Shown: positions 2,353 to 61,304 of the stretch, one piece after another | Layout of the letters: every line of letters starts with the position of its first letter | Position numbering within the stretch: the stretch's first letter is position 1 | NCBI GenBank assembly: GCA_040285745.1 | Contig: JAUFOR010000007.1 | Span: forward strand, 62,001 to 126,000 | From: Barthelona sp. PCE | Lineage: Eukaryota | DNA: 64,000 bases | Reading direction: 5' to 3' | Program-made: the position numbers and the translations under genes | Notes under the pieces: generated by a model | Databases searched by the model: none | The model's input: the letters and a program-made list of their open reading frames with translations, nothing else | Told to the model about the DNA's origin: nothing

Positions 2353-5300
2353 TCACAAAGCAATGGCACGAACCTGAACTGAACCAGATCGATCTCTAAA
2401 GAAGATTATGTTAATAAAGATTGCAACTAAAATGGCAATGCCAACAATAATAGCGCCATAGACAACGAGCATTTTGAAATCAACCTCATCAGGTGGTGTG
2501 ACATCAATGGTTGGGATAGTAAATGAACGCAGGGTAAGCTCTGATGAGCTCTGAGTCTCGAAATAACGTGCACTGGTCGAGAAACCATTATCTGAAGTGG
2601 CAAGGACGTCGAATATACAAGCTTCAACGAACTCATCTCTGAGCATAGTGTTACCATCAAGATCCTTCAGACCGTTTGCAATACACTCAGCACGTGCGCT
2701 CTCAATATCTACCGCCTCGAAAGAATCGATAGTGGCGGGCTCAAACGCCAGGTCAAGGAACGAGGCCGGGGAGTATCCGTCAGGGTATGTAAAGAGAGAC
2801 TCGTGGCTACCGATAGCCCAATCAAGGAAGAATGCGCGCATAGCAGCATCATTCTTCTGGTCAACAGCAGATCCATCACGCATAGTGAGCTCTGAGCCAG
2901 AAACAGCTCCAGCGACACCCATGAGACCCTCTGAGAGGACGACACTTGCGTCAAGCGCAATGCCAACACCGAAGAAGGCGGTTGATGATGTGGAACGAGA
3001 GGAAATGACAACAGTAGTCTCTCCACACGACACTTCAATATCGGTTCCGCCGTTCCTGACTGCAACATTAGGAACGTCACCATTGATTACCTTAGTACCG
3101 TTCACAAAGATATCTGCACCGTTTAGTCCCGCGCGGATTTCTGTTATCTCACCGTAATGCTTGATTGCAATGGCAGTAACAACGGTACCGACGCCTACGG
3201 GCTCGAAACGTGTCTGGACCTCTGTCTTATCATCCTTTGAGAGGATGAACTCACCAGGAACCTGCATATCATAGATGGAACCAGTGTGTGTGACAATATG
3301 AGGATCACCAAAAGTACCACGAGGAGAAGATGTCGAGACCTCTGTGGGAACAACGGTGAAATAAAGTTGATCAAAGAATGCGTGACCAGATCTGTTGAAG
3401 AAGACAGCGTAGTAATCAATGTGCTTGATTGGCTTACTCACCTCGAACTTGTGCTCACGGTACATCCAGTTGTATGTACCAGTGGGGAAGGTGATGAGCT
3501 GCGACGATAAAACGCTGTCATCCTGGAATGTGATGTCGCATACAATAGCGTATGTTGATGACTCGACACCACTAACACTGTTAGCCTTTGCCCAACCGCT
3601 CATGTAAACAATTTGGTTACCAATGTCCTCTGGCTGATCGAGGATCAGATTTTGGTGGGCACCATACTCTCGTACAGTACAGTTGGGGTTTGCACCCATA
3701 ATAAGAGATGCCTCCTTACCCTTGATCTGGGCGGGGAGCAGCGTGGTTTCACGAGAAACATCATAGGAACATTGTCCCTCACCGGCCCAGAACTGCGAAT
3801 AGCGATGATCATCACGCATCCACTCTGTAATCTCATCAGTCCAATCGTGGACAGTCACGTTGAACTTGAGAGGGAACCACTCATTAATGATGGTGTAATC
3901 CATGGAGGGGTTGAGCAGCAGGTTAGATGTCGGGTGCTCGACGTTGACGGCATCGAAGCAAACCTTTCCACTAACGTTGAAGAACTGCAGCATGACACTG
4001 ACAGATTTCGTCCTCTTCTGAGGAATGACACTTACGACAGCACGCTCATAGGGGTGTGACGCGAGGTGGAAGTTGGCAAAATGCTCAGAAGTTGACTCGT
4101 CCTCGTACTTAACAACAACAATCAATGAATAGGTGGGCATGTAGAACTCGTGCATGTATGGTTCTGTGACGTTTTCTGCCGACGACCATGTGCTGACTGC
4201 AAAAGGAGCTGTTGTGTTGAGGGTCTTTGTCTGCTTCAGATACGACAGAACGTTGAACTCGTTGTGTTCGACACAAGCGGCCTTTACGCCAGTGCGTGTG
4301 TTGTTCTCAACTGCCCAGGGGCCAACAACAGTCCAGTCATCCAGGTCAGACTCAAACGATGGGTTGTCCAATGAAGGCATGACGTGTGCCAGTGTTTTGT
4401 ACATCAAAACATGCTTGTGTTTGAAGTGGGGTACAATACAGCGGCCACGATAACCAGTACGGTGGAAACCACCATCAGTGCTCAATTGGAGCCTGTCATT
4501 GTCGAGGATACGTGCTTCAGACGACCAGGGTACAAGACCCCAGCCAGAAGGCAATGCGTAAGGCTCATCGGACTCGTAGTCAAAGTCAAGAGGGTGCTTT
4601 CCTTCAACGGTAGCATACATATCATCTGAGAGAATGATGGAATGCTCCAAGTGTGTGATTAAGCCGTGCTCGGAAGGAATATCATCAAGCTCAGGAATGT
4701 CACAGCTGGGAACACTATCCACTCTAATAATATCAAAGAGCGAGTGTACAAACAGTGCCTGTGCAGCCATACGGGGCTCATTAGTTGCCCCAACGTCTGT
4801 CTTACAGAACTCAAGGGTTGAACCAGTGAGTCCCATAGTCGTACAGATGTAGTCTGCAGGGGTAATGCTGCTTTCAACCTCGAGGTTCGACGAGTTAAAC
4901 AACAGAGTGCGATAGAAGTGTGTGTACATGTTGACGTCCGTATCAAAGGCAACATCGCTCACAACCAGCTCATCACTGTAATCTAGAGCTGCACTGTCAA
5001 AAGACAGTGTCGTAGCGTTCTTCCACCATGTCATGTTGACTGGCATACCAACAAATGCGGCCATGACCAGTCGATCGTACTCGTTACCGTCCATGTAAAC
5101 CTTATCCTCATGCACTGACCAGAATGCAATCTTGATTGTGGGCGTGTCCGCGCGTGATAAGTTAAGCGTAAGAACGTAATCTTCCTCCAGTACGTGGACA
5201 TCAGTATCCATATCCAGACCCATTGCACTAATTGTACCGTCGATTGTGAACTGGAAATCATCGTTGTCTGCCAACGTGGTAAGTGAGCCGTTGATATAAA

Positions 5301-7917: not shown

Positions 7918-8745
7918 GTTAGAATATGTAGAAAAAAGTATAAAAATTAAAAACAATAATATAATCATCGCCTGACACTTCTGTAAACTACTTTGATGGA
8001 TAAAGTTTGATGCTTTTTACTATTGTATCTATTAACCGGATAGAATCCTATGTATATACTTAATGTGTTGTGCTAATAATAAAGTTCTTATCAAACAGCT
8101 CTGCAGCTTTTCTTTCTTGTGGAAGCCACTGCACCATCAATTTTCCCGAACTTGTTAGCTATTACCAACAAAATTGAATGCCTATCTAAAAGCAGCAACC
8201 ATTTTGACTGATTCACTATTTTTCACCTGATATCACTCAAAATAATCGGTATATCTACAAATTTACTTTTTAAATATCTAAAAATCTTTGCAACTTTCAC
8301 AATAGTTAAGCAGGTTTCACAAAATATATAATATCCATAATAAACACAGTAATTCTTATACAAAAATCATAGTTAACGTTTTAAAACAAAAATTGAACCA
8401 AAAAAAAGTTTCTAAACTGCCAAAAAACAGAAATTTCCTCTATATTGCCAAACCACGTATCTTCAATGCCAATGTGCACCAAAACTCTCTACATCCATAT
8501 AGACAAACTTTAAAACTCCAAAAAATGTGCTAAACTGAGATATTCAACAAATCTTGTTCCTTTGCAATATGCATAAAAAGACATCATAAAAATGCTATTT
8601 TAGTAATATTATACCTCAAAGACTATTTAGAATGATTGCAATTCAAACAGAATCAAAGAAAATGAAAACATTAATGACTTATCAATGCCGTTCAACCTTT
8701 TCCCACCTTTTTTATTCCACATAGCTGCTTTTTACCCTTTTTAAA

Positions 8746-23740: not shown

Positions 23741-26700
23741 ATGGTTAAAGCACTTAAAACAGAAGATGGACGTGCTTATGTGAAGTGGGTTGATGAAAAA
23801 CAGATCGTAGATGTGGTATTATCTGATGAACCTTACACAGGTGTATCTTGGACATCTAAGGATGAGCGAGTGTTGGCCACGGTGCACACTAGTTACATCC
23901 GCGTGTTCAGTATTCCGTCATTGGAGGAAATTTACGCCGTACCTACCAATTCAATGGTTAAGTATGGTTGTTTGAGTTTTGACGGACAATTTCTGGCATT
24001 CAGGGTCGGTGATGACTACCATGTACATTGCATAAGCTCGCAAAGTTTAATCTCGAATGTTACTTTTACAAAAGGAAGCAATTGCTGGGTCAATTCTGAG
24101 GCTATCTTTGTTCAAGAGAGTGTTGACTATGTGTACAAGTTTATTCATGGTTCAAGCGAGGCAGCCATGAAGTTTGATGGTCTTTTTGCTGTTGAGCAGA
24201 GTGATGGAGAAATGTTTTTTTTAAGAAATGTTTTGTCTGATTGGAGAACAAAATACACGTTCAGTTTAATAGATTGTGGAAATGATGTTTTAGCAATGAG
24301 GCATTATAACAATCACATAGATTCAATTTCAGCAGACATTTCAGCAGACATTTCATCGAATTATCTGATGTTTAGTGATCCAGATAAGATATGGGTGCTT
24401 AACCGATCAACATTAGCTTTTGTGTGGTCAAAAAGAAGAATTGATAAGGGTGAAGAAGTTGAAGCAGTATACATTGCACTAGATGAAGAGCACTTCACAG
24501 TTGTTACAAGTTCTGGAATTGGGTATATTTGTAATGTTCAAGGCGAAATAGTTGCCACCGTTCCATCGCATTGCACAGGACCAACTGTTTCGTATGATAT
24601 TGTTGAAGATTATTTTATTAAGGCTAACACTCCACTTGGCTCGTTCTTTTGTTGTGGATCATTCAGTACTTGTGAAGAAAACTACTTTGTCAAAAGAGTT
24701 GAAAATGGCTTTCTTTTTTTTTTTTCATCGAAAATTACTCACATATCTAAGTCTAAGGAGAACTACATTACTAAGAAACATGACCCTCACAACGGAGTTA
24801 TTGTCAATGTCACAAGAGATGCTGACTCAGTGTTCCATGTTGAATTGGATGATGGCACGTTTATGCTTGTTGAGTGGACCAAAGATGATGGGTTTGGCCG
24901 TATTTTGAAGTGCAACAGTGATAGAATCAACTATGGTAACGCTATAGATATTGAGATTGAGATTAGTGAATTGTACTCCAGAATCAGTGAACAGAAGTTG
25001 GAATTGGACACAAAGTTTGAAAGGCAGAAATCTGAGATGCAGATGAATTTTGAGAGTCAGAAGTCAGAGATAGAAATGAAGTTGCAGAAGCAGAAGAAGG
25101 ATATGGAAGACCAAAAATCGGAGATGGATACAAAATTACAGGTTGTTTTCGATACATTGAATCAACTGACGCCTAATTCGGGTAACAGTGAGTACAGTGC
25201 GCTGACGGAGCATGTTAACGGTTGCGCTGCCGCCGTTCGTCAGCTTGAGATGCCACCTGACTCATTTTTTGATTTAATATCTTCTAACTCCAATGTGAAT
25301 ACGTTGGAACAGCATATGAATGAACTAGAGCAGGCTATTAACTTTATTAATTCACTGAAAAACATCATTTTGGATTTTGAATTAGAAGATACCTTATCCA
25401 TCACTTTCAGCTCCAAGTTTTCGGATTTGGTAGCACAGTTTCCCATTGCTAAGTTGCTGAACGAGCATTCCTACGCTGCTAAACTTACCGAACTGCAGAG
25501 TTTGGATGTTTACTTCAAGGTTTTTGATAAGTATGACAAGCTTCACTTGGCTGAGGTGCACTCAGCGCTCATACATTTCAGCGACAAGAGTAAGGCTTTG
25601 GACGGCATCGTTCAACAAGTTGGAGAGATCACACAACGCGCTACGGAGTTCAGGGAAGCTCTTTCGAAAGATGAAGACACAACTGATCTGCTGGATTTTA
25701 ACTTAATCTATTTTCTGCACAAGCAAATGGGGCGTCATCGTTCAGACATGACAGCGTGTGCATACGTACACTTTAAGCAGGAAAAGAAGCATCTTCTTGA
25801 AGTTATTGATTACAGTGCTGAACAGTTGAAGGATATCATTGCTGAGTTTTCCCTTGCACTTGATCTGACAGCCACTCTAAAAGAGCTGAATCTCTCTGGC
25901 TTCAGACTACCAATAACCCCAAAAATCATCGATTATGACAGTTATTTGAACGGTGAGCTTGCTGATGCAGGTTTGCAGAATGATATAGTAGAGGGAGATG
26001 ATCTGCTAATTAAGTGTGTTTGTGTGTCCAAAAAGTTTAGAGGTGATCTTAACCAAAATATTAAATCTTTACAAACGGAATTACGTGTTTTATCAAAGTT
26101 TCAACCTTTTGTTGTTGCACTAAAGAATATTGTGCTGGTTCCAGAGATGCGAAGAGGCCGTATCTCTGTTAAGTTCGTGTGTATAGAGCTCGAGCGCGCA
26201 TCATACGATCTTGAACAGTATCTGAGCACATTCCCTCTAGAATTAGCAACCAAAAATGATTTGGCTCACCAGCTTGTCAAGGCTGTGTTCGTGATGCACG
26301 CTAACGGTATCATATTGCGTGATCTCAGACCTCGGAATGTTCTTATTTATTGCAGTGAAGATGGTTCCAACCCCAGGGTCAAATTATGTGATTTTGGAAT
26401 AAGTATTGATGGTTCACACATTTTGGGTGCGGCTATGGTGTCACGCAGCAATGTCCAAAAGACACATAAAGTTTCCAAGACCATTGAATCATTGGGAAGA
26501 GCTATCGCATGCATTTATGCTCAAGATAGATCAAACGCTTCTAAACTTGTTTTGCCAAATAACTGTGCACACTCTGTAATCATCGAACGATGCCAAGCCT
26601 ATAATATGAGTGTTAGACCAACTATCTACGAATTGAGCTGCTATGAGTGGCAGCATACTATGAATTCAGATAGCCTAGAGCTCATCCGTCAGCAGATTAA

Positions 26701-27982
26701 CCAGTTTATTGTCAGCAAACAAATGCTATTGTGTGATACTGAGGTGGCAGAAAGAACAGCGAAATTTGTTCAGATGGAGCAGACATTTGACGAATTCTTC
26801 GTGCGGGTGTTCAGAAATACTGGCGTGTTTATGAGTGGTGATGGACATTTCGGTGCTTCCATTACATTGAACGGCATGGAGCAGCTCTCAATTCCACAGT
26901 TCGTGGACCACATCTTCGAGCATCGAGCATTGCCCCGCTTCGATACCACGGCATCTGAAGACCGTGTCGAGGCGATGTGTGGGTTCCTGTACTGCTGTTT
27001 CGTGTTCCAGACACCGGTTGACGACGTGCAGGTCGGTCAATTCTTGCTAAACGCGCTCAGTGAAGATTATGACAAGCTTTCTGAGGCAGTTGTCTTCGAC
27101 AGAGTATTCCCAGCCGAGTCGGCGTACATCCTTAACATGTTGGATCAAGAGGGTCTGAACTTCAACTTCTTGGGAGGTGAGGACAAGTTGGTTACAGCTG
27201 ATAATATTGATGAATTCCTACAGTTCGCCCGTGAATCCGCATCCGAACCATGGGCGGAGCTGTCAAAGAGGGTAAACGCCACGTTTAACTTCCATGAACT
27301 GACATCGCAGCTGGGAGTCACACTCACGTTCGCTGAAGTCAAGGCGATGATGTGCGGCCCCCCTCGTTTCACCACCGAGCAGGTTCTTGCTACCCTGGTA
27401 TTCGACGATAGTGTACCCACCAACCTACGCGACGCAGTAGCAGAAATATTACAGGGATTCAACTCTCTTGATTTGTTGCAGTTCGTGTACTGGCTCAACG
27501 GCTCGCCCGAACTGAACTTGTTCACCGTCATTCTACAACCCGTCGACGACATGCTACCGTCTGTCGCCCTTTGCGATCAAACGTTGAGGCTCCCGAACAG
27601 CGTTTTGCGCTTGCGCGAAGGAATCCCTCTCGCCATCCGCGGCATCCTCCCAAATGAGTTCAAGCTCTTTATCACGCAGCGCCTCTCGCAATGGACGCAG
27701 GACGACGTAGACAAGCTCAACAACCGTTTGCATAACGCAACCTTGATTACTATTGAGTTTAACAACATTCCAGGTGTGCTGTCTGTGCGCGTATGTCCGA
27801 ATTGCCTGACACCCATAGAGCACGGTGGAGCGTGTAAGAGCATGAAGTGCTTCACGTGCGCTCGCGAGTTCTGCTTCTCGTGCCTCTCATCTAACTGCGG
27901 ACACTACGTTCAGTGCAACGTTGCCCCGGTACAAATTGTCACCCTCGAGCAGGTGCAGGAACGCATTCAGCAGTTCCAATAG
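23741..27982 (+). CDS. gene A: beta-propeller-like / coiled coil / degenerate kinase / HECT E3 / RBR-type Rcat domain (1413 aa)
   Basis: Kinase motifs LLIK, ELRVL, ILRDLRPRN, CDFG, with no APE. HECT motifs GGEDKLVTADN, EVKAMMCG, LLQFVYWLNGS, LPSVALCDQTLRLP. Rcat CPNCLTPIEHGGACKSMKCFTCAREFCFSC. Confidence 0.85.
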   Translation: MVKALKTEDGRAYVKWVDEKQIVDVVLSDEPYTGVSWTSKDERVLATVHTSYIRVFSIPSLEEIYAVPTNSMVKYGCLSFDGQFLAFRVGDDYHVHCISSQSLISNVTFTKGSNCWVNSEAIFVQESVDYVYKFIHGSSEAAMKFDGLFAVEQSDGEMFFLRNVLSDWRTKYTFSLIDCGNDVLAMRHYNNHIDSISADISADISSNYLMFSDPDKIWVLNRSTLAFVWSKRRIDKGEEVEAVYIALDEEHFTVVTSSGIGYICNVQGEIVATVPSHCTGPTVSYDIVEDYFIKANTPLGSFFCCGSFSTCEENYFVKRVENGFLFFFSSKITHISKSKENYITKKHDPHNGVIVNVTRDADSVFHVELDDGTFMLVEWTKDDGFGRILKCNSDRINYGNAIDIEIEISELYSRISEQKLELDTKFERQKSEMQMNFESQKSEIEMKLQKQKKDMEDQKSEMDTKLQVVFDTLNQLTPNSGNSEYSALTEHVNGCAAAVRQLEMPPDSFFDLISSNSNVNTLEQHMNELEQAINFINSLKNIILDFELEDTLSITFSSKFSDLVAQFPIAKLLNEHSYAAKLTELQSLDVYFKVFDKYDKLHLAEVHSALIHFSDKSKALDGIVQQVGEITQRATEFREALSKDEDTTDLLDFNLIYFLHKQMGRHRSDMTACAYVHFKQEKKHLLEVIDYSAEQLKDIIAEFSLALDLTATLKELNLSGFRLPITPKIIDYDSYLNGELADAGLQNDIVEGDDLLIKCVCVSKKFRGDLNQNIKSLQTELRVLSKFQPFVVALKNIVLVPEMRRGRISVKFVCIELERASYDLEQYLSTFPLELATKNDLAHQLVKAVFVMHANGIILRDLRPRNVLIYCSEDGSNPRVKLCDFGISIDGSHILGAAMVSRSNVQKTHKVSKTIESLGRAIACIYAQDRSNASKLVLPNNCAHSVIIERCQAYNMSVRPTIYELSCYEWQHTMNSDSLELIRQQINQFIVSKQMLLCDTEVAERTAKFVQMEQTFDEFFVRVFRNTGVFMSGDGHFGASITLNGMEQLSIPQFVDHIFEHRALPRFDTTASEDRVEAMCGFLYCCFVFQTPVDDVQVGQFLLNALSEDYDKLSEAVVFDRVFPAESAYILNMLDQEGLNFNFLGGEDKLVTADNIDEFLQFARESASEPWAELSKRVNATFNFHELTSQLGVTLTFAEVKAMMCGPPRFTTEQVLATLVFDDSVPTNLRDAVAEILQGFNSLDLLQFVYWLNGSPELNLFTVILQPVDDMLPSVALCDQTLRLPNSVLRLREGIPLAIRGILPNEFKLFITQRLSQWTQDDVDKLNNRLHNATLITIEFNNIPGVLSVRVCPNCLTPIEHGGACKSMKCFTCAREFCFSCLSSNCGHYVQCNVAPVQIVTLEQVQERIQQFQ

Positions 27983-28047
27983 ACTGATGGTAGATATTTG
28001 TAGCTGTTAAACTGTGTGTAAATATATTGTGTAAAATAATGTGTAAC

Positions 28048-28209: not shown

Positions 28210-31200
28210 TTATTGCTGAATAGTAACTGATCGCTTAATAATACCCATTCTAGTACGCCTGGGACAGCTGGATACGCGCAACACGCGCCCGCTGAACCCA
28301 AGAGAAACGCCAAGTGAGGGATCTGATTGCAGTACTACACTAATGCTATGCGTTTTGTTATAGCTGCCAAACAACCAGCTGATAATGTTTGTCAGGTGAT
28401 CACTACGCATGTCAGCCAGAACATCTCTGAGACTCTCTCTTATCCGGTCAGAAACGTCCGGTTTAAACGTGAAGCAACTAAAAACATCATCAGAGCAAAT
28501 GTGTGGCTCTCGACACAAGATACTTTTAATTTCATGGAATGACAACTCAGAAAGGTGCTGTTCCGCTGCGAATTTACCTGAATGAAATATTCTGTGGATT
28601 TGGGAGGACATCATACTCACATTCATATTTTCGGTTAAATCCATCTCTTCAATGTCAAAACTGGCATATTCTGAAGGAAAAATCCTTGAAAACACTCTTT
28701 CAGAAAGCAAATCATCATGATCTCTGCTGATTGCATTCAAAAGTACATTTCCCACAAGTATATCATTGATTGGGACTCCGAAGATGAGGCAGCAGTATGT
28801 AAACACTGCAAGTGCAGTTGAAGTCTGTTCAGAAAGCAGTGGAACCATTCCACTAGTTTGGATGTCATCCGCAAATTCTTCAAAAGTCAACAACATAGAA
28901 TTGCGAGATATGCGGAATCCTATCTCATTGTCAGATCCCATGCATGATGCGTAGTTCTCAAAAACATGAACAAAATCAGATTCGCTATCAATTGTGCATT
29001 CAAAAGGCGGTGAGCAAATCTTCGATAACATGTATCGGTTTGAGAGGGAACGTATGCTTTCGTCCTTTGGTGAGAAATACACATACAGATCGAATATTGA
29101 AGGGCGATCCAGCGGATTTGGTGAGAGACACTTGCTCAAAACGTCAGAGTGCGCATCGTTCTGACCATACACGTATCTTAGCGTCTCTCCAAGTGAATAT
29201 ATATCGCTCATGAATGTGTGTGGATGACCAGGTTCACGCACCTCTGGAGCCATGAAATTAATTGTGCCAACGGTTGTTGTACTGATCAAAGTCTGCGTGG
29301 TATCGATACTTACGCCAAAGTCACACATTTTCAGAGAAAGACCAGTATCATGGCAGAATATAAGGAAATTTTGAGGTTTAATATCTCGTATGATAATTCC
29401 ACTGGATCGCATATAGGAGACACAACTTATCATTTGCTGGGCCAATGAGTTGCGAGTTTTTAAGCACAAGTCTGGGTTCTCAATCAGGTACTTATCGAGG
29501 TCCATAAATGCAAGTTCTAGCTCCAAACATACGAATTCAACATACAATTCTTCATCTTCCTCCACCGCGACAAACACAATGTTTTTGAGGGCTACGATGT
29601 GCTTACTCTTGCGAGATAGAACACGAAGCTCCCTCCTCAACGCTTTTATATTGTCATCACGAGTATCACAATCATCACAAATGCAAAAACACTTTATGAA
29701 CTTATTATCGAGGGCAATCTTGCAATTATCGAGCGATTCATTGTCTAAAGCACCGTTTAAATATAATTCAGAGCTCATTGAAGTGATTTCGCATGGTAAA
29801 GGTAAATCATCCACTTTTATCTTTTCTAACTGCGTTTTTAAGTTCAGATTCAAAGTTATTGATTCGGTTAGTTTATCTAACTTGGTTTTCCAAGTCATGT
29901 ACTCGTATTTGAGCTCACGGCTGATTGTAGTAAATCTTGAATCAACGATACACTCCAGATCTTCCAAACAGCGCTGTATTAGAACGTTTAGCTCATTTAG
30001 CATGTTGACATCGAAATGTGTGTCCTTTTTCTTCCTTATGCGACGACGTCGTTTTGTGGGTTTCTCTTCCTGTAATTGATTCCACAACTCACTGTATGCG
30101 TCTGATATGACAGGTATTCTGCTGTATGTATCATTGAGTAACTGACACTCGTTAAATGCAACTGCAAAATCAAAGTTACTGCACTCTTCCAAGAAAACGA
30201 AATGTTGGTCAAAATCTCTCGCTTTCTCCAATAATCTGTGACAAACATGCTCGTAGATGATGCGTGTGGCCGTGTTTTGGGGTTCAAAGTCACTTATTCT
30301 GTTCTGTATTGAAGCAGCCAAAGTGTAGTTCAAATCAAATTTGTGTATTGCATTATCCATCAGTTCACTGAACATCACACACTCACTCATACCAGCTGAA
30401 AGAGTAGGAAGCATATCCACCGTGATAGCTTCTTCCAACATCCTTAGCGTTTCTCCTGAAGGGAGAATTATGTTTGAAAACTCTGTAAAGCACTGTTCGG
30501 CATATTTTTGCAGTTCTTCAATGCATTTTGAATCTTCTTTGCTGTCCAGGATCACAGATATCGCTGCATCCATTTTAAAGTTAATTTCCTGCAACTTCAT
30601 ATCAGCCTCTTTCAACTTCCTTTCCAACATCTCTTGTTTTCCTGAGGCAGCGGCCATCGCATCAGCGTGCTGCTTCTCAATCATACTGATTTTCTGATCG
30701 AAAGATGTACTCAACCTCAGCTCCACATCCTCAAGACTGTTCTTCAACAGATGTTCTGTCAGTTGTAACATTGATCTGTTTAAAAAAACTTCCTGTCCCA
30801 GCGAAAGCATGTCTTCACCGGAAGATGCGATCTTGTGATCAACAAACTCAGTTCCGTTCCACAACTGCTGGAAAGTGGTACCGGTTTCAGTTGTTAATTG
30901 GAACATGTTCGGATAAACATCGTTCGTGGCTGCCCTAACAACATTTCCATCGAGATGGTGCAATTGAATGTGCTTGTATGAAAATGCATGTTTTTTTTGC
31001 CGCCAGCCAGTCGAAAACACCACACACCATTTATCAGTGAAAATAAAACCCTTTCCTTCATGTTCAATGCAATCACAAATAGTTTTAAATGGTCGGTAAT
31101 CCATAAGATCACCAAAGCTAAAAAGACAGTAATGGTCTATACATCGCACAAAATAGCACAAATTCAGAACGAAAATATCGTTGATTGGGAGTTCTTTAAC

Positions 31201-32067
31201 TAAACGTTGTAGATTAGAAGATGGTGTGTCGTTGATTGCATGGCCAGTTTTAATGCACCAAATGCCTTTAGATATGACATATCTTTCATTAGGCGAAATA
31301 TAAACATAATTGGGGTCGAAATCTGCATTTGTGATTGTTAGATAAGGTTTTGCAATATTGCCATTCACTCTAAACACCAAAATAACGTTGTTTCTCAGCG
31401 TTGCTACTGCGTAATTCGATGAACCATAACATTGTACACAATCATTTGGATGCAGGTAATAACTACCATCTCTGCAGGTGGTTGTGTGCAACGTGCTTAT
31501 ATCACGATGCTCCATCTCAAAATACCCACGTTCGTTGCCAAAAAATGTGACGCATGTTCCGAAATAATTGACTGTTGGTCGAACATAATTACAAGTAAAC
31601 AGATTGGAAGCATCATTGTTCACACACAAAATGCTGTGAGAAACAGCTCCATTCCTTTGCAATGTGATTAGGAAACGGTTGTTGCACAGTGATTTGATTT
31701 CAGTTATGTCAAGATCTCCAAAATTTGGAGCTTGAATCGGTAACTTCTCTGAAATATTCCAAAGCGTTAATTTTCCCTCTGTTGGTTCTTTGATAGCTAA
31801 AATATTACCGTCATCAGAGATACAGCACAGATTGCGATTGGGAAACAGGGCACAAAAAATTCGTTTTAGGTCAGATTCAATGGAATAGGCAGCTACTCGA
31901 TTATCGTCTAAAATACACGATATATACTTCCAATTGCAAGACATAGATGCATATGTGATCGCGGTGTCACATTCAATTTGATGCACTATATTATATCTAA
32001 GCGCATCTTGATTAAAATGCTTTTGAGTCACATTTATCTTTCCATTAACAATTCTGAGCTGTATCAT
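28210..32067 (-). CDS. gene B: beta-propeller-like / coiled coil / protein kinase / degenerate HECT (1285 aa), paralog of gene A
   Basis: Kinase motifs FIK, ELRVL, IIRDIKPQN, CDFG, GTINFMAPE, SDIYSLG, RPS. Shares YLNG.L, YCC..F..P.(N/D)D..VG..LLNA.S and VF.R.FP.E with gene A. Confidence 0.85.
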   Translation of the reverse strand: MIQLRIVNGKINVTQKHFNQDALRYNIVHQIECDTAITYASMSCNWKYISCILDDNRVAAYSIESDLKRIFCALFPNRNLCCISDDGNILAIKEPTEGKLTLWNISEKLPIQAPNFGDLDITEIKSLCNNRFLITLQRNGAVSHSILCVNNDASNLFTCNYVRPTVNYFGTCVTFFGNERGYFEMEHRDISTLHTTTCRDGSYYLHPNDCVQCYGSSNYAVATLRNNVILVFRVNGNIAKPYLTITNADFDPNYVYISPNERYVISKGIWCIKTGHAINDTPSSNLQRLVKELPINDIFVLNLCYFVRCIDHYCLFSFGDLMDYRPFKTICDCIEHEGKGFIFTDKWCVVFSTGWRQKKHAFSYKHIQLHHLDGNVVRAATNDVYPNMFQLTTETGTTFQQLWNGTEFVDHKIASSGEDMLSLGQEVFLNRSMLQLTEHLLKNSLEDVELRLSTSFDQKISMIEKQHADAMAAASGKQEMLERKLKEADMKLQEINFKMDAAISVILDSKEDSKCIEELQKYAEQCFTEFSNIILPSGETLRMLEEAITVDMLPTLSAGMSECVMFSELMDNAIHKFDLNYTLAASIQNRISDFEPQNTATRIIYEHVCHRLLEKARDFDQHFVFLEECSNFDFAVAFNECQLLNDTYSRIPVISDAYSELWNQLQEEKPTKRRRRIRKKKDTHFDVNMLNELNVLIQRCLEDLECIVDSRFTTISRELKYEYMTWKTKLDKLTESITLNLNLKTQLEKIKVDDLPLPCEITSMSSELYLNGALDNESLDNCKIALDNKFIKCFCICDDCDTRDDNIKALRRELRVLSRKSKHIVALKNIVFVAVEEDEELYVEFVCLELELAFMDLDKYLIENPDLCLKTRNSLAQQMISCVSYMRSSGIIIRDIKPQNFLIFCHDTGLSLKMCDFGVSIDTTQTLISTTTVGTINFMAPEVREPGHPHTFMSDIYSLGETLRYVYGQNDAHSDVLSKCLSPNPLDRPSIFDLYVYFSPKDESIRSLSNRYMLSKICSPPFECTIDSESDFVHVFENYASCMGSDNEIGFRISRNSMLLTFEEFADDIQTSGMVPLLSEQTSTALAVFTYCCLIFGVPINDILVGNVLLNAISRDHDDLLSERVFSRIFPSEYASFDIEEMDLTENMNVSMMSSQIHRIFHSGKFAAEQHLSELSFHEIKSILCREPHICSDDVFSCFTFKPDVSDRIRESLRDVLADMRSDHLTNIISWLFGSYNKTHSISVVLQSDPSLGVSLGFSGRVLRVSSCPRRTRMGIIKRSVTIQQ

Positions 32068-32582: not shown

Positions 32583-35500
32583 ATGTTAAACCTAGGGTTT
32601 AAAAGGCAGTTACTGCTTTTGACTGTTTTGTTCTTAGCACATACGGCAGCCTTAACATTCCACGAGAAGTATAACGGATACGAGTATGAGGCACCAAGTT
32701 CCACCTCGGATTCATCTCGTTATTTTATATTTGAGAGGAGTTTCTCTGAGTCTTGGCCATTGATTATGAATTTCAAGCTTTTGCACGGTGGAGTAACAAC
32801 AACATTAACAACAGACTGTAAGAAGGAGCTGGATGAGGAGTTCTTCCGAGTCTATCAGTGTTTGATTCCTGCACGAACAGCAAGCAATGAATTTTCATAT
32901 GTTTTAAAGGTTAGAAATCTGACTGAAACACACATTAGTGTTTATAAGGAGTACGAAAAACCCGTTGGAGGGCTGATTGTTTCTTCCATGCATGCGTGGA
33001 ACTTCACCTTTAACTTCACGCTTTACCTCAAAAATACTATAGGAAATGATACGGTTCAGATGTGTTACGGTGCTGACTGTGGTGGTTCTATTGTATACCA
33101 TGATATGTTCCTCTCTGATGGTGGTTTGTGGGAGATTTCTCTTTCCACCTTGAGCGTTCCCAACCATTTGGATTTGCTTACTAAACAGGATTTTAACGTA
33201 CAAATTGGAGATAAAACAATACCACGCTCAGAATTTACGATTATGACGTTCACAGAATCTGAATCATATCCGCAGCAAATATTCTCGAATCAACGGGATT
33301 ACGGAGACATCCTGCACGTAATGGCTGAAGAGCAGGACCTCGACATAAACTCCATTCAGCTCGGTGGGCCTGTGAAAATATGTCTTGGAACAGAAGCAAA
33401 CCCCAGCGTCGCGTGCACATATGAGAACCCCAACTATCAGTACAGAGTTGGTGATGCCATCGAGTTCATCGAGGAGAGCTTTTTTGATATGTATCAGTAT
33501 ATAGATCCCGACACAGGGTTCACTCGTTCCATGCTACGAACATACATCAACACCACTTGGGAAACAGAAGCAGGTGTTCCTGACGGTCTCTACTTTGTTG
33601 TTGACGGAACTGAACTTCAGTTTAAGATATTGGATCTGGCAGTTTACGATGTCAAGGATGGGTTCCCGCACGTAGAGGAGATGTCACCTAAGTTCATTGA
33701 GTTCGACGTTGCGTCAGACCCGATTGAAATATCTGCAACAATCACCAATCACATGAATTCATTCCATTCATACTACGATCAGACTCCTGTTGATCTGGGC
33801 GACGGAAACTACACGTACGTGAAGCGTCTTGCGTTCGGCACTGATGGGGGCGGTCCGCTGGCTGAAATCGATGCTTGTCTGGGAGTTTCTCCTTGCGATT
33901 TTTCACTGAATATTGATAAGCAGATGTTTTATGAGGGTGAAGGCGAAGAGTCTCAAGCAACGTTCACGCTGGTTAAGAACACGATCGCAGCCCCCATCAC
34001 ATGGACAATTGGCAAAAGAGTAACGATCCCTGCTGCTGTGGACATTCAAGGAGGAGACTCAAACTTTACTATCTGGAGAACACCCACAGCCTCTGCTATT
34101 TCAGCGAATACATTTGCGTGCAACTCAATGGTGTCACTTGAACTGTATTATGATCCATACGTTGTGCCGGATTTACGTAAGAACAGCAACAATGGTCTTA
34201 TCATAGTTCAAGACCTATTCGGCAACCTTGTCACTAACTTCACAGTTGACCTGAACTTTGCCCAGCTTGACAGTGAGAAGCTGCAGACATTTATCTTGGC
34301 GTTTGAGCTTGACCTCTCGGATCAGGGTTATGATTCGTTTGTGGAGCTTAACGTCTTGGTGTCCTGGGATGGCGTGACCACACCGCTGTCGTCGACCAGC
34401 ACAAAGATCACCTGCTTCAATTTGAATGAGATCACAAGTGTCACACCCAATCAAATTGGTTACAATGCTGAAGAAGTATACATCACGCTAGCATCATCAA
34501 AGGACTTTGTTGTTATGCCTGGCCGTTCACCAAAGTTGCGTGTGATTCCGATTGGGCTCGAATCCGCTCAGGTTGACATTGATAGCGATGATTTTACTGT
34601 TAATGGGGCTGAGATTACGGCTGAAGCACCTTCATTTTCATTCAGCGAGGATGCTACTGTTGAGATTTTGTACTCGCCCAATGGAGAGTTCTTTGCCACA
34701 CCAGACTACACTGATACGCGCAACCAATTGAATTACATTAGTTCGATCGACGTTGAAGTTGCTGGGTTTTCTCAGTACATTTTGACAGATTTTTGCACTG
34801 CAGTAGGTAACAGCGAGGTTGTCGATCTCACAATTACACTTGTTGATTCGCTGCCCGAGAAGGAGAACGTACCTATGGTGTACGTAGAGGTTATGAACGC
34901 CAATGGTGCAGTATTGTACACACAGCAGGTTCTAGAAAGTGATATCGACTCGGAGTATAAGGTCTTCACAGTCACATTCGATATTAATGCTGCATGTGGG
35001 TCAGTCACAACGCCGGGCATCTATAAGATTGCGCTTTCGGCAAACGTTAGTCCAATCTATTACTTTATGCAGACCGAGGTCGTCTTTACTGGTGAGTCAA
35101 CAGTGTTTTCTGAGTTCCGTTTCAATAACACGTTGAAGAACTCCTTTTACCAGTACGGTGGTGTTAAATTTAATCTGTTAGGCAGCGGTTTTTCACCATT
35201 CGTTGGCTTGTCCGGAAATGAAGGACCCAAGCTAAAGTTTACAGGTGCGCTAAGCACATCAGTAGCTGACGAGACGACTGATCTTATCTTTTTGAACGAC
35301 ACACATGCTGAATTCACCCTACCTTCGTTCAGGTATGCAGTGGAGACGACGTTAATGGTTTCTTATATCAAAGACACGTTCCAAAGCATTGATGGACTCA
35401 CATTTTCGTTTGAGAAATGCGAACTCGGCTGGTATCAAACCACATTTTTGGATGTATGCAACGAGTGTCCGCTGGGAACATATGGCTCCGAGCGCGGAAT

Positions 35501-37568
35501 TTCCCAATGTACATCAGCTGATGAAGGTTACTATGTTGATCAGCTAGCTTCTACTTCAGCATCAGTGTGCCCTGAGTTTGCTCTTTCTGGTGTCGGTGCA
35601 ACTGACATCCTCGAATGCTATTGTCGTGACGACTATTATGGTGAACGCGGTCTGAATTGTACAGCGTGCCCAACCGGAGGAGAGTGCATTTTCCCCAATA
35701 ATGTCTGGCCTGTCGCTAGCGCTGGCTATTATGCAAACGAGACTAACCCTGAGGTCATCAGCGAGTGCATTCCCGCCATTGCTTGCGTTGGTGTACAGGC
35801 TGCGAACTGCTCTTCTCTAAGCGATTGTAACCAGTGCGCTACAGGCTATGCTGGAGACCGCTGTGCATCATGCGATACTAATTATTACAAGAGCAACGAG
35901 TTGTGCAAGGAGTGTCCTTCAACAGACTATGCACAGGTTGGAATCCTTTCTGTGCTTGGTGTATTTGCCGTTTACGTAGGAATCATTGTGCAGTCCGCTG
36001 CAAGCGAACTGACCGACGATGTCAATGATTTCCTCGAGCTGATTCAATCCGACCAGATGGTAAAAATGGGTAAAGAAGCGTTTAAAACAGCAAAGTCAAT
36101 GTTCAAGCAACTTCGTCTCACAAAGCTTGGTATTTTCGTCAACTTTGCGCAGGTTTTCAGTGTTTTCCCAGATTTCAACATCTCACTGGGTCCGTTAGAG
36201 GAGTGGTTTGAGAAAATCTTCGAGTGGTTCTCGTTGCTCAAGTTCGATTTCCTCACGATCTCTCCTCCCGAGTGCTACACACCTCTCTCGTTCTACGACT
36301 ACTATAAGCTGAAGATGTTGATTGTACCTGTCTCGTACATCTCGTTGGTATTGGTTGGTTTTCTGATATGGCTCATCCCTCGTATCCTTGGATGCTTCAA
36401 TGGGTGCCATCGCCGTCAGAAGACTATCACAGACATTCACGATAAGGTTATGTCATTGTTCATTATTATTCTCATTTATACGTACACATACATATCCGAC
36501 TCTGTAATCTCGTATGCGAACTGCACAACAACGAGTGATGTTTCAACACAGAAGGTTATTGCTAAATCTCCAGAAACCGTGTGCTACACGGACGAGTACA
36601 ACGACTTTGCGCCAATGTATTACCTTGGTCTAATCCTGTACGTGGTTGGTATCCCTGTATCTCTCATGGTGATTCTGCGCCAGCTCAAGAAGAGGGATTC
36701 CCTCGGCAAACCGCGTGCAAAGGCATGGCTTGGTATTATGTACGAGCACTACAGACCCCACCGCTATTTATATGAGCCTCTTATTATGGTCAAGAAGTTG
36801 CTTATTGTTCTGTCCACAGTTATATTTACTGATAAGTACGAAGGCACGTTGGTTGGTTGCTTCTTTTTGTTCCTCTATTTGTTGATGCAGGTGCGAATGA
36901 TGCCATATGCGGAGAGCAAGGATAACGTACTGGAGTTCCTGAGTCTGCTCACGAACTTCTATTTGCTGCTTTCACTTCTACTCATGAATTCGAACCTGAG
37001 CACCCGTGCCAAGACATGGCTGTCAACTCTGGACTTTATTTTGATCGGTCTCAACACACTGTTCTTCGCCATGCTGTTTATCACACAGATCCGTGATCTG
37101 TGCAAACCTAACGACGAGAAAGACGTCGAAGAGGAGGCTGATGTTGATTTTACTATGTACTCGATAAACGGTGAAATGGTTCCGCTTTCCGGTGAGGCGG
37201 CCAAAAAGGCAAGTGAGTTTATCAGACAGCTCAGCAGAAAGCAGGGACACAGACGTATGTCGGTGGTTGATGCCGCAAAACGCTTTTCGGCTGCTCGTCG
37301 TAATTCTATGCCTCCTCCAATGGAGGGCGAGTATGAGATGCAACCGCTGGGCGTTGAGCCATTTGCTGGTGTGCAACTACAGGCACCGGGCATGATCTCA
37401 GCACCAGTACCAGTGATGCCTTCTGATAACAGCGAGGCACACATTGAGGAAGTGCTTAACTTTGACACCAACTCTGCGTTGGACGATTCAGACGAGGATT
37501 ACGAGCTCCCAGCTCCCAATATGCCTTCTCTGACTGAAGAAGAAGATCATGGCATGCACATTGTGTAA
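32583..37568 (+). CDS. large receptor-like membrane protein: signal peptide, Ig/IPT-like ectodomain, Cys-rich ephrin-receptor-like repeats, multi-pass TM domain
   Basis: CNECPLGTY, C.CRDDYYG, CTACPTGGEC and CATGYAGDRCASC repeats; FVNFAQV, LYVVGIP, LGIMYEHYR and QVRMMPY...DNVLE in the TM region. Confidence 0.85.
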   Translation: MLNLGFKRQLLLLTVLFLAHTAALTFHEKYNGYEYEAPSSTSDSSRYFIFERSFSESWPLIMNFKLLHGGVTTTLTTDCKKELDEEFFRVYQCLIPARTASNEFSYVLKVRNLTETHISVYKEYEKPVGGLIVSSMHAWNFTFNFTLYLKNTIGNDTVQMCYGADCGGSIVYHDMFLSDGGLWEISLSTLSVPNHLDLLTKQDFNVQIGDKTIPRSEFTIMTFTESESYPQQIFSNQRDYGDILHVMAEEQDLDINSIQLGGPVKICLGTEANPSVACTYENPNYQYRVGDAIEFIEESFFDMYQYIDPDTGFTRSMLRTYINTTWETEAGVPDGLYFVVDGTELQFKILDLAVYDVKDGFPHVEEMSPKFIEFDVASDPIEISATITNHMNSFHSYYDQTPVDLGDGNYTYVKRLAFGTDGGGPLAEIDACLGVSPCDFSLNIDKQMFYEGEGEESQATFTLVKNTIAAPITWTIGKRVTIPAAVDIQGGDSNFTIWRTPTASAISANTFACNSMVSLELYYDPYVVPDLRKNSNNGLIIVQDLFGNLVTNFTVDLNFAQLDSEKLQTFILAFELDLSDQGYDSFVELNVLVSWDGVTTPLSSTSTKITCFNLNEITSVTPNQIGYNAEEVYITLASSKDFVVMPGRSPKLRVIPIGLESAQVDIDSDDFTVNGAEITAEAPSFSFSEDATVEILYSPNGEFFATPDYTDTRNQLNYISSIDVEVAGFSQYILTDFCTAVGNSEVVDLTITLVDSLPEKENVPMVYVEVMNANGAVLYTQQVLESDIDSEYKVFTVTFDINAACGSVTTPGIYKIALSANVSPIYYFMQTEVVFTGESTVFSEFRFNNTLKNSFYQYGGVKFNLLGSGFSPFVGLSGNEGPKLKFTGALSTSVADETTDLIFLNDTHAEFTLPSFRYAVETTLMVSYIKDTFQSIDGLTFSFEKCELGWYQTTFLDVCNECPLGTYGSERGISQCTSADEGYYVDQLASTSASVCPEFALSGVGATDILECYCRDDYYGERGLNCTACPTGGECIFPNNVWPVASAGYYANETNPEVISECIPAIACVGVQAANCSSLSDCNQCATGYAGDRCASCDTNYYKSNELCKECPSTDYAQVGILSVLGVFAVYVGIIVQSAASELTDDVNDFLELIQSDQMVKMGKEAFKTAKSMFKQLRLTKLGIFVNFAQVFSVFPDFNISLGPLEEWFEKIFEWFSLLKFDFLTISPPECYTPLSFYDYYKLKMLIVPVSYISLVLVGFLIWLIPRILGCFNGCHRRQKTITDIHDKVMSLFIIILIYTYTYISDSVISYANCTTTSDVSTQKVIAKSPETVCYTDEYNDFAPMYYLGLILYVVGIPVSLMVILRQLKKRDSLGKPRAKAWLGIMYEHYRPHRYLYEPLIMVKKLLIVLSTVIFTDKYEGTLVGCFFLFLYLLMQVRMMPYAESKDNVLEFLSLLTNFYLLLSLLLMNSNLSTRAKTWLSTLDFILIGLNTLFFAMLFITQIRDLCKPNDEKDVEEEADVDFTMYSINGEMVPLSGEAAKKASEFIRQLSRKQGHRRMSVVDAAKRFSAARRNSMPPPMEGEYEMQPLGVEPFAGVQLQAPGMISAPVPVMPSDNSEAHIEEVLNFDTNSALDDSDEDYELPAPNMPSLTEEEDHGMHIV

Positions 37569-61033: not shown

Positions 61034-61304
61034 GCTTAAAGAGATGGGAAAAAAACTATAACAACGTTTAAGCTGAATTTATCCGATAGTAAATTTCACA
61101 AACTGGCTTAATATACATGTAAGTTGAGATTTTTACCTTGAAAATACTAAAAACTCAATATACTTCATGCCCTGCAGAAATTCTTTTCAAAGCTGTATGT
61201 GACATGCATGTGGGAGAATTGTGAGTTTTGTGGGGAAATTCAAATCCACAAAATTGTCATTCAAGGTATGTAATCGTTTCCTTTTTTTTTACTTTCTTCA
61301 AAGA

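Follow-up and report, generated by a model that had tools for sequence, protein, structure and literature searches.

Among E3s, the HECT and RBR enzymes form the two classic classes whose mechanism involves a covalent E3~ubiquitin intermediate, and to our knowledge each has always been regarded as a solution of its own. The locus described here raises the question of whether both can be built into one polypeptide and which of the two cysteines would then be catalytic. It lies in a window of 64,000 nucleotides (the whole stretch of DNA that was analysed) from Barthelona sp. PCE, for which a preliminary description had proposed a protein combining a kinase fold, a HECT domain and an RBR-type Rcat.

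Domain organization of P0001

A single intact open reading frame on the forward strand (23741..27982; all features of the protein given below lie on this strand) encodes P0001, a protein of 1413 residues plus stop with no internal stop codon, and a tblastn search of the window with P0001 recovered this frame at 100%. The motifs on which the preliminary description relied, namely GGEDKLVTADN (residues 1145–1155), EVKAMMCG (residues 1199–1206), LLQFVYWLNGS (residues 1245–1255), LPSVALCDQTLRLP (residues 1272–1285) and CPNCLTPIEHGGACKSMKC (residues 1352–1370), are all found where it had placed them, as are both cysteine codons. Its central claim, that one polypeptide carries a HECT domain and then an RBR-type Rcat, also stands, the HECT part on fold matches and the Rcat part on sequence matches, and we regard this architecture of HECT plus appended Rcat as very probably real.

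A complete HECT domain

The HECT region and the tail were modeled together with AF2 (residues 960–1413, pLDDT 83; adding 959 to a model residue number gives the protein residue number). A Foldseek search with this model retrieved 104 PDB chains at E ≤ 1e-3, with HECT folds as matches (best E 5.2e-11, probability 1.00), and VIA-align gave 115 chains with Z ≥ 8, the whole-HECT match spanning model residues 17..344 with a Z of 13.7. The N-lobe (residues ~976–1206; 26666..27358) was delimited by VIA-align against E6AP, model residues 8..247 superimposing on E6AP residues 465..761 (Z 11.9, rmsd 4.3 Å, 229 residues). The C-lobe (residues ~1209–1303; 27365..27649), which includes the LPSVALC loop, superimposes more closely on that of E6AP (Z 12.8, rmsd 2.1 Å, 94 residues, 20% identity), and the C-lobes of UBR5 and HUWE1 match it similarly. 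Cys1278 (codon TGC, 27572..27574), in ...DMLPSVALCDQTLRLPN, aligns with the cysteine of HECTD3 ...DALPESSTCSSTLFLPH, which we take to be the catalytic C823. The HECT identity proposed earlier is thus borne out by a complete bilobed fold in the structure model and by the position of Cys1278 in the canonical C-lobe loop in the HECTD3 alignment.

The domain is far less visible to sequence profiles. Pfam HECT (PF00632) gives no match in P0001 at E ≤ 1, and the sequence match with HECTD3 has an E of 0.02. Among the 14 family members scanned, one is matched by Pfam HECT at E ≤ 0.01; in the paralog P0007 the score is 28.5 bits (E 1.5e-6; cut-off 23.9), and P0014, with 23.3 bits, falls slightly under that cut-off. 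With canonical HECTs (HECTD3, NEDD4, E6AP, UBR5 and HUWE1), P0001 shares the bilobed N-lobe/C-lobe fold, a cysteine in an LP....C..L.LP loop some 30 residues ahead of the domain end and a phenylalanine, Phe1307, where HECTs have their −4 Phe, but its sequence is very divergent and the domain is not C-terminal: the chain continues for ~110 residues past the C-lobe, into a second ligase module. The junction consists of a PNEF motif and two linker helices (residues 1304–1333; 27650..27739), as judged from DSSP of the models and from the end of the paralog P0011. Phe1307 is immediately preceded by Glu1306; in HECT aminolysis, according to a published review (PMC13196369), an acidic side chain can substitute for the C-terminal carboxylate.

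An Rcat module in the tail

The tail contains an Rcat-type zinc module (residues 1349–1392; 27785..27916), as indicated by Pfam, alignments with RBR Rcats, column counts and a model of the tail. The candidate zinc ligands are C1352, C1355, C1370 and C1373 on the one hand and C1378, C1381, C1386 and C1392 on the other, the eighth ligand thus probably being Cys1392 instead of a histidine. Cys1365 (codon TGT, 27833..27835) occupies the Rcat catalytic position in alignments with the GGC cysteine of ARIH2 and parkin, and a C-terminal helix (residues 1402–1412; 27944..27976; H99–109 of the tail model) lies beyond a conserved VAPxQ motif. The best PDB sequence matches of the last 110 residues are the Rcats of parkin, ARIH2, ARIH1 and CUL9, with Cys1365 on the catalytic cysteine (phmmer E 5.8e-4 for parkin RING2 and 5e-3 for ARIH2), and a search of 1.84 billion representatives with the tail gave 98 Rcat-only matches at E ≤ 1e-3. 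Pfam IBR/IBR_1 matches P0001 with an E of 0.0025 (18.3 bits, under the cut-off of 24.3) and is matched in 10 of 14 family members, with a best E of 4.6e-6.

In an alignment of 48 tail sequences, 14 from Barthelona and 34 from outside relatives, six cysteine ligands are invariant. The position of Cys1365, which is not a ligand, is a cysteine in 13 of the 14 Barthelona tails and in 33 of the 34 outside relatives. The +2 position, Ser1367 in P0001, is a serine in 11 of the Barthelona tails and a histidine in none of the 14, histidine being found in 16 of the 34 outside relatives. The aligned zinc ligands and the alignment of Cys1365 with the RBR catalytic cysteine support the Rcat assignment of the preliminary description, including the replacement of histidine by Ser1367. 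The tail model is confident (pLDDT 94.6), and its fold agrees with an Rcat although the structural scores of so small a module are weak: 41 of the 42 Foldseek matches listed for it are RBR proteins, with no match at E ≤ 1e-3; with VIA-align the maximum Z is 4.2, and some of the top matches are IBR domains, not Rcats.

The rest of an RBR unit was looked for in P0001. No RING-type family appears among its Pfam matches at E ≤ 1, Cys/His clusters are confined to residues 1352–1392, in the tail, and the protein contains one IBR-type stretch only (residues 1349–1385), directly after the HECT domain and two helices, in agreement with the RING1–IBR absence noted earlier. In all studied RBRs that we know of, RING1 and IBR deliver E2~Ub to the Rcat. 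Compared to parkin, ARIH1/HHARI, ARIH2, HOIP, HOIL-1, RNF216 and CUL9, with which it has in common the zinc pattern and the position of the cysteine in GGxC...C, the P0001 tail lacks RING1 and IBR, has a serine at +2 and is placed after a HECT domain.

The nearest relatives of the tail outside the family, at 35–49% identity across it, are short proteins of eukaryotes that carry a 'CK..C / VAPxQ' Rcat at the C-terminus; those of oysters and scallops bear the names RNF217-like or ariadne-like, and others come from foraminifera, MMETSP and metagenomes. They share with P0001 the pattern VPSxRxCPNC..IEH...CKxMxC..C...FCFxCL...C.VAPxQ and the preceding helix but are only 66–380 residues long, some carrying an N-terminal ubiquitin-like domain, and neither a HECT nor a kinase domain was found in any of the 27 that were scanned.

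Kinase-like and N-terminal regions

Upstream of the HECT domain lies a protein-kinase-like domain (residues ~731–975; 25931..26665), identified from Pfam, CDKL5/CDK4 alignments and the family alignment. Pfam Pkinase (PF00069), which is matched in all 14 family members scanned, covers residues 762–888 of P0001 with 45 bits (cut-off 31.7), a match that spans only positions 34–145 of the 263 of the profile. Lys758, Glu780, Asp861, Asn866 and the DFG motif (residues 884–886) are kept; LRD stands in place of HRD, an arginine replaces the catalytic-loop lysine and no Gly-rich loop is seen in the domain. In P0001 and P0002, a segment shorter by 8 residues takes the place of the GTxGYMAPE motif of most paralogs, a change for which a simple frameshift was ruled out as the source. 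P0001 is therefore without the complete kinase motif set (Gly-rich loop, VAIK Lys, αC Glu, HRD, DFG, APE) and its kinase-like domain looks degenerate: the kinase fold proposed earlier is retained, the Pkinase score being above cut-off, but with a partly covered profile and a degenerate activation segment and APE.

The propeller-like N-terminus of the preliminary description (residues 1–400; 23741..24940) is weakly backed. β-propeller families are matched in two of 14 paralogs (Beta-prop_EML_2, best E 1.1e-7), whereas P0001 itself has only sub-threshold Pfam matches there, to ANAPC4_WD40 (E 0.014) and an Aladin propeller (E 0.04), so that a β-propeller is possible. It is followed by a charged heptad-like stretch (residues ~405–470; 24953..25150), with weak Pfam matches to HIP1_clath_bdg and Remorin_C, which likely forms a coiled coil.

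A lineage-specific family

P0001 belongs to a family of large multidomain ubiquitin ligases that is specific to one lineage, a barthelonid metamonad. The family so far comprises 19 proteins, encoded by 19 genes of about 1100–1600 codons each, and those that are named all come from Barthelona sp. PCE; when 1.84 billion representatives were searched exhaustively, no relative of the HECT-like part turned up outside it. The HECT domain and the tail are its most conserved regions (57–77% and 65–94% identity, respectively, between P0001 and most paralogs) and the N-terminus diverges fastest (15–35%). P0001 and P0002 are 91% identical overall and 94% in the tail. A cysteine at the HECT active-site position, together with the LPxxxxC..LRLPN loop, is found in 13 of 18 aligned members, and catalytic residues are lost in P0016, P0017, P0018 and P0021.

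Two paralogs keep a single site. P0011 retains the HECT cysteine, has no tail and ends in ...GFNAL, with a phenylalanine at −4; it is nested among paralogs with the tail. P0014 has a valine at the HECT cysteine position and keeps the Rcat cysteine. The neighbor of P0001 in the window, P0018 (28210..32067, reverse strand, convergent; 1285 residues; identified from BLASTP, alignment and Pfam Pkinase), is also a paralog (25% identity over 997 columns, E 9e-75 with BLASTP), with a kinase and a HECT-like region, a serine at the HECT cysteine position and no Rcat tail.

Which cysteines are catalytic?

Our preferred reading, to which we give a rough probability of 0.45, is that Cys1278 and Cys1365 are both catalytic. 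The N-terminal region, with its probable propeller and coiled coil, would be the recognition or assembly part. The HECT N-lobe would dock E2~ubiquitin and Cys1278 would be charged; Cys1365 would be the second thioester site, and its ubiquitin would come from Cys1278 or straight from the E2 on the N-lobe; in the latter case the N-lobe would replace RING1 as the E2 holder. The tail would then be a helix–Rcat–helix module of RBR origin appended to a HECT domain, and the second thioester site could confer a second ligation chemistry or specificity. The presence of the HECT site alone in P0011 and of the Rcat site alone in P0014 suggests, from two paralogs, that the active sites are separately viable; these paralogs argue against an obligate HECT-to-Rcat relay, a relay having been put forward in the preliminary description as a possibility, within a putative sensor-coupled hybrid E3, and lead us to favor two separately competent, cooperating sites. 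The AF2 model (pTM 0.55) leaves the relative placement of Cys1278 and Cys1365 undefined.

[quoted passage not shown] The missing +2 histidine, the absence of a RING1/IBR unit to load the Rcat, the canonical HECT end of the tail-less P0011 and the inability of the structure searches to tell an Rcat from a non-catalytic IBR all point this way. However, Cys1365 is nearly invariant inside and outside Barthelona even though it binds no zinc, the best sequence matches of the tail are the Rcats of ARIH1/2, parkin and CUL9 and not their IBRs, and the +2 position varies in the nearest outside subfamily too; we hold this explanation to be somewhat doubtful. The converse arrangement, in which the HECT domain acts as a scaffold, or as a pseudo-ligase, that only docks the E2, with its N-lobe in the role of RING1–IBR, while the Rcat cysteine does the chemistry, would fit a HECT domain that is too divergent for Pfam and not C-terminal, as well as P0014; it also has a precedent in G2E3, where, according to PMC3673628, active RING/PHD-like fingers coexist with a non-functional HECT. 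The retention of Cys1278 and its loop in most members, the high conservation of the HECT domain and the survival of a HECT site alone, with its canonical Phe end, in P0011 make it quite improbable.

Decay is harder still to reconcile with the data. If P0001 were a decaying copy within an expanded family, without enzymatic role, its degenerate activation segment, shared with P0002, and the losses of catalytic residues in four paralogs would be expected company; yet its 1413 codons are free of stops, both cysteines and all zinc ligands are kept, the near identity to P0002 extends through the tail and the host genome is reported in PMC11316075 as only 10.2 Mbp, which leaves this explanation very little probability. 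The most ambitious reading would make the family an E3 class with a new mechanism. The N-lobe, in the role of RING1–IBR, would recruit E2~Ub, ubiquitin would move from Cys1278 to Cys1365, the Ser-for-His Rcat would bring a different acceptor chemistry or linkage and a quickly diversifying propeller would select the targets, as might be expected if the family served conflict or surveillance in a protist that feeds on bacteria and has a minimal genome. As a whole, we consider this unlikely.

Precedents and implications

The HECT-then-Rcat combination appears to be undescribed: the literature searched, including the available parts of PMC3673628, PMC4327156 and PMC11316075, yielded no published description of it. 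The preliminary claim of novelty holds to that extent but not for automatic annotation, since Pkinase, HECT and IBR all exceed their Pfam cut-offs in P0007 and the architecture is thus already catalogued by machine. Two ligase modules, or a kinase with a divergent HECT, have been seen in one protein before: CUL9 combines a cullin-RING and an RBR (PMC11257990), and G2E3 and the kinase–HECT proteins of Naegleria and Ectocarpus (GL-Bikonta) are further cases (PMC3673628). None of these combines HECT and Rcat, and the search of 1.84 billion representatives recovered none of them as a sequence relative of the HECT-like part.

With respect to function, two cysteines of one polypeptide reportedly pass ubiquitin between them in the RING-Cys-relay of MYCBP2/PHR1, the kind of relay that the preliminary description had suggested. 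The comparison with P0001 is of the works-like kind only: MYCBP2/PHR1 recruits its E2 through a RING and has an unrelated fold, a tandem-cysteine domain.

HECT domains are described in PMC4327156 as tied to the C-terminus, with no room for domain shuffling on that side, a rule to which the complete HECT domain and following orphan Rcat of P0001 are an exception. P0001 also indicates that an Rcat can persist without RING1–IBR. It offers a system for asking about ubiquitin handover between HECT and Rcat cysteines and about Rcat loading without a RING, with the single-site paralogs as natural controls. Finally, 19 genes in a genome of 10.2 Mbp represent a notable family expansion, and the association of variable N-termini with a conserved ligase end suggests a diversified target recognition.

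A complete, very divergent HECT domain

P0001 is encoded by a single open reading frame of 1413 codons (window 23741..27982, plus strand) with no internal stop, and its translation contains every motif quoted in the preliminary description, each in its place. The Pfam scan of P0001 detected no HECT domain even at E ≤ 1, and by sequence alone its HECT part matched one protein of the PDB, HECTD3 (E 0.021). This alignment sets P0001 ...DMLPSVALCDQTLRLPN on HECTD3 ...DALPESSTCSSTLFLPH, so that Cys1278 (codon TGC, 27572-27574, plus strand) lies over a cysteine that we take to be the catalytic one of HECTD3. The Pfam HECT profile scores 28.5 bits in the paralog P0007, above the curated cut-off of 23.9, and 23.3 bits, just under it, in the paralog P0014. 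We built an AlphaFold2 model of residues 960–1413 from 18 family sequences (mean pLDDT 83.1, pTM 0.55). In a Foldseek comparison of this model with the PDB, the top matches were HECT domains only (among them UBR5, SMURF2, WWP1/2, HUWE1, ITCH, AREL1, Tom1, E6AP and NEDD4), with a best E of 5.2e-11 and 104 chains at E ≤ 1e-3. VIA-align superposed model residues 17..344 (numbered from residue 960) on the NEDD4 HECT with a Z of 13.7; the E6AP C-lobe was matched with a Z of 12.8 (rmsd 2.1 Å over 94 residues, 20% identity) and the E6AP N-lobe with a Z of 11.9 (4.3 Å over 229 residues). A rotation of the lobes would produce the high rmsd of the whole-domain HECT matches. Given the structural matches, the HECTD3 alignment and the Pfam hit in P0007, residues ~976–1303 of P0001 form a HECT domain that is complete, if very divergent, and has its cysteine in the canonical loop, as the preliminary description had proposed.

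This HECT is not C-terminal. According to passages of PMC13196369, the carboxylate needed for HECT aminolysis can be an acidic side chain rather than the C-terminus; since Glu1306-Phe1307 occupy a fitting position for such a side chain, the extended HECT of P0001 may still be able to ligate.

The tail carries an Rcat module

A search of PDB sequences with the last 454 residues of P0001 retrieved parkin RING2 (E 5.8e-4) and ARIH2 (5e-3), as well as ARIH1 and the CUL9 Rcat. The cysteine of the P0001 'GGAC' motif, Cys1365 (codon TGT, 27833-27835, plus strand), is aligned with that of 'GGC' in parkin and ARIH2. Pfam IBR/IBR_1 remains below cut-off on P0001 (E 0.0025); IBR is detected in 10 of the 14 family members scanned (best 4.6e-6), above cut-off in P0007.

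The last 110 residues, modeled from 48 sequences, gave a pLDDT of 94.6. This small module alone produced no Foldseek match at E ≤ 1e-3; RBR proteins made up 41 of the 42 rows listed, and the model superposed locally on the Rcat of parkin, HHARI and HOIP at 0.8–1.6 Å, over 32–39 columns with 28–42% identity. VIA-align of the same model against 48,161 chains yielded no Z ≥ 5, and its best 10 rows were all RBR proteins (Z 2.8–4.2), some of them IBR domains, not Rcat. The ranking points to RBR modules at weak structural scores and, since its rows mix Rcat and IBR domains, the predicted fold reads as an IBR/Rcat-type zinc module, which the sequence, through the parkin RING2 match and its aligned cysteine, identifies as an Rcat. 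The Rcat assignment made in the preliminary description is thereby sustained, and so is the absence of RING1-IBR: neither a RING-type domain nor a second IBR-type stretch was found in P0001 by the Pfam scan and from the Cys/His positions.

C1352, C1355, C1370, C1373, C1378 and C1381 are invariant in the 48 aligned tail sequences, and C1386 and C1392 almost so. Outside Barthelona, His1388 is present in 3 of 34 sequences and therefore not conserved, so that the eighth zinc ligand is probably Cys1392.

Relatives and origin of the tail

HMMER, run exhaustively with residues 1000–1413 against 1.84 billion cluster representatives, returned 112 matches at E ≤ 1e-3; the ESM Atlas gave no usable match. 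The HECT-like part is covered by 14 of these matches, corresponding to 13 named proteins from the anaerobic metamonad Barthelona sp. PCE, which is free-living, and to an unnamed neighbor gene in the window; all named relatives of P0001 are annotated 'hypothetical protein PCE1_...'. The other 98 are matched through the tail only: those with names are short proteins of oysters and scallops labeled RNF217-like or ariadne-like, and further ones belong to foraminifera and MMETSP protists or stem from metagenomes. What aligns with them exceeds the generic Rcat pattern and comprises a preceding helix, VPSxRxCPNC, IEH, CKxMxC, FCFxCL and a C-terminal C.VAPxQ. No HECT domain was detected in the 27 of the 98 tail-only matches that were scanned, that is, 14 long enough for one (at least 406 aa) and 13 shorter. 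With these extra motifs shared, and no HECT in the 27 relatives scanned, the tail looks as if a particular RBR subfamily had contributed its catalytic end, placed behind a HECT domain.

The short eukaryotic relatives (molluscs, foraminifera, other protists) form a widespread subfamily with a C-terminal Rcat and a CK..C / C.VAPxQ signature. Pfam sees a single IBR-type stretch in most of them, and several outside relatives (P0041, P0046, P0073 and P0092) have N-terminal ubiquitin-like domains.

Evolution of the family

We collected 19 family members (P0001–P0018 and P0021), the C-terminus being alignable in 18. The HECT cysteine is present in 13 of these, the Rcat cysteine in 13 and both in 12. 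P0018 (1285 aa, 28210-32067, minus strand), which lies tail-to-tail with P0001 across a gap of 227 bp, combines a kinase with a HECT-like region in which Ser stands in for the HECT Cys, and it lacks the Rcat tail; it clusters with P0016, which shows identical losses (no HECT Cys, no tail at all). In P0017 and P0021, the HECT Cys is missing and the tail is degenerate; in P0014, Val takes the place of the HECT Cys and the Rcat Cys is intact. P0011 retains the HECT Cys and terminates in ...GFNAL, four residues past the Phe aligned with Phe1307, which is the canonical HECT ending; in a quick maximum-likelihood tree, it is nested among tail-bearing paralogs. Because tail-bearing members fall on either side of the deepest splits that have support in the tree, this phylogeny places the HECT–tail fusion in the ancestor of the family and makes the losses secondary, with a minimum of two changes for the HECT Cys and three for the Rcat Cys.

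Identity of most paralogs to P0001 rises from 15–35% in the N-terminal 400 residues to 28–43% in the coiled-coil/helical part, 44–59% in the kinase, 57–77% in the HECT and 65–94% in the tail; such a steep gradient suggests diversifying N-termini. P0004 is 30% identical to P0001 in the N-terminus and 90% in the tail; for P0003 the figures are 82% (N-terminus), 59% (kinase) and 94% (tail). Such mosaic identities hint at recombination or gene conversion between paralogs.

Two possible active sites in one protein

Two modules homologous to thioester-forming ligase domains, both of which retain their cysteine, make up a strongly constrained unit at the C-terminus of P0001. The HECT N-lobe would recruit E2~Ub, whereupon Cys1278 would be charged; Cys1365 might then receive ubiquitin from Cys1278 or directly from the E2 bound to the N-lobe, or might never be charged. 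The paralogs P0011 and P0014, each of which keeps one site, suggest that either active site can survive without the other, and we therefore favor two separately competent, possibly cooperating sites in P0001 (probability roughly 0.45). The preliminary description had proposed that ubiquitin may be relayed from HECT to Rcat. The boldest version, an obligate relay, seems unlikely with the two sites found apart in these paralogs; as for co-loss of the two cysteines, the tree offers only two independent pairs, so that significance is unattainable.

A non-catalytic tail is the more serious rival, albeit a doubtful one: Ser1367, two residues after Cys1365, occupies the position of the usual His, while Cys1365, which is not a zinc ligand, is retained by 13 of the 14 Barthelona tails and by 33 of the 34 outside relatives. 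A pseudo-HECT acting as a scaffold has a parallel in G2E3, whose HECT is described as inactive in passages of PMC3673628, and P0014 has lost the HECT Cys but not the Rcat Cys; with Cys1278 in place in P0001, we hold it to be improbable. Decay, for which the degenerate tails of some paralogs might speak, is very improbable for P0001 with its uninterrupted frame and constrained C-terminus.

As read from the sequence, P0001 joins known domains in an order at odds with the rule, stated in PMC4327156, of a C-terminal HECT. In line with the preliminary description, full-text searches of the literature yielded no description of a HECT/Rcat hybrid or of a HECT+IBR+kinase, HECT-RBR, HECT-IBR or HECT-RING2 fusion. 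The main text of a HECT survey of eukaryotes (PMC3673628) nowhere uses the word IBR; passages of this survey report that Naegleria and Ectocarpus have divergent HECTs fused to kinase domains. However, Pkinase, HECT and IBR are already visible in the automatic annotation of P0007, so that a database architecture query might list the combination.

The kinase-like domain and the N-terminus

The Pfam kinase match in P0001 passes the cut-off, which supports the kinase fold announced earlier, but only from the N-lobe to DFG (profile positions 34–145 of 263). Lys758, Glu780, Asp861, Asn866 and DFG are present; LRD replaces HRD, Arg replaces the catalytic-loop Lys and a Gly-rich loop is absent. Where most paralogs have a GTxGYMAPE segment, P0001 (window 26387-26500, residues ~883–920) and P0002, its 91%-identical twin, have an unrelated sequence that is eight residues shorter. 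The kinase-like domain is thus probably a pseudokinase or an atypical kinase. A compensated frameshift in the activation segment was considered and rejected: both alternative frames are interrupted by stops and contain nothing resembling APE, so that divergence with an eight-residue deletion is preferred. Upstream, the sequence reads as a likely coiled coil. The proposed propeller N-terminus finds weak support, with sub-threshold matches in P0001 and clear beta-propeller matches in 2 of 14 paralogs.

Genomic context

The window is eukaryotic, with few introns, and GC is 0.39 in 24001-26000 versus 0.47 in 26001-28000. A promoter/terminator scan based on bacterial models, which has no bearing on a eukaryote, gave no signals above shuffles. 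PMC11316075 reports a genome of 10.2 Mbp for Barthelona sp. PCE, the smallest known among free-living eukaryotes; its main text mentions neither HECT nor ubiquitin nor kinase. Neighboring genes code for a proteasome alpha subunit, Nup54, a P5-type ATPase, beta-amylase, a class-II aldolase and a NuoF-like protein, among others. Two other very long ORFs, both unrelated to P0001 by tblastn, encode a DUF4114 protein of 1871 aa that also shows a sub-threshold match to RGM_C (2353-7968, minus strand) and one of 1661 aa devoid of Pfam matches at E ≤ 1e-3 (32583-37568, plus strand). The NuoF-like protein (61221-62594, plus strand) combines Complex1_51K, SLBB and NADH_4Fe-4S, in an anaerobe with reduced mitochondrion-related organelles.
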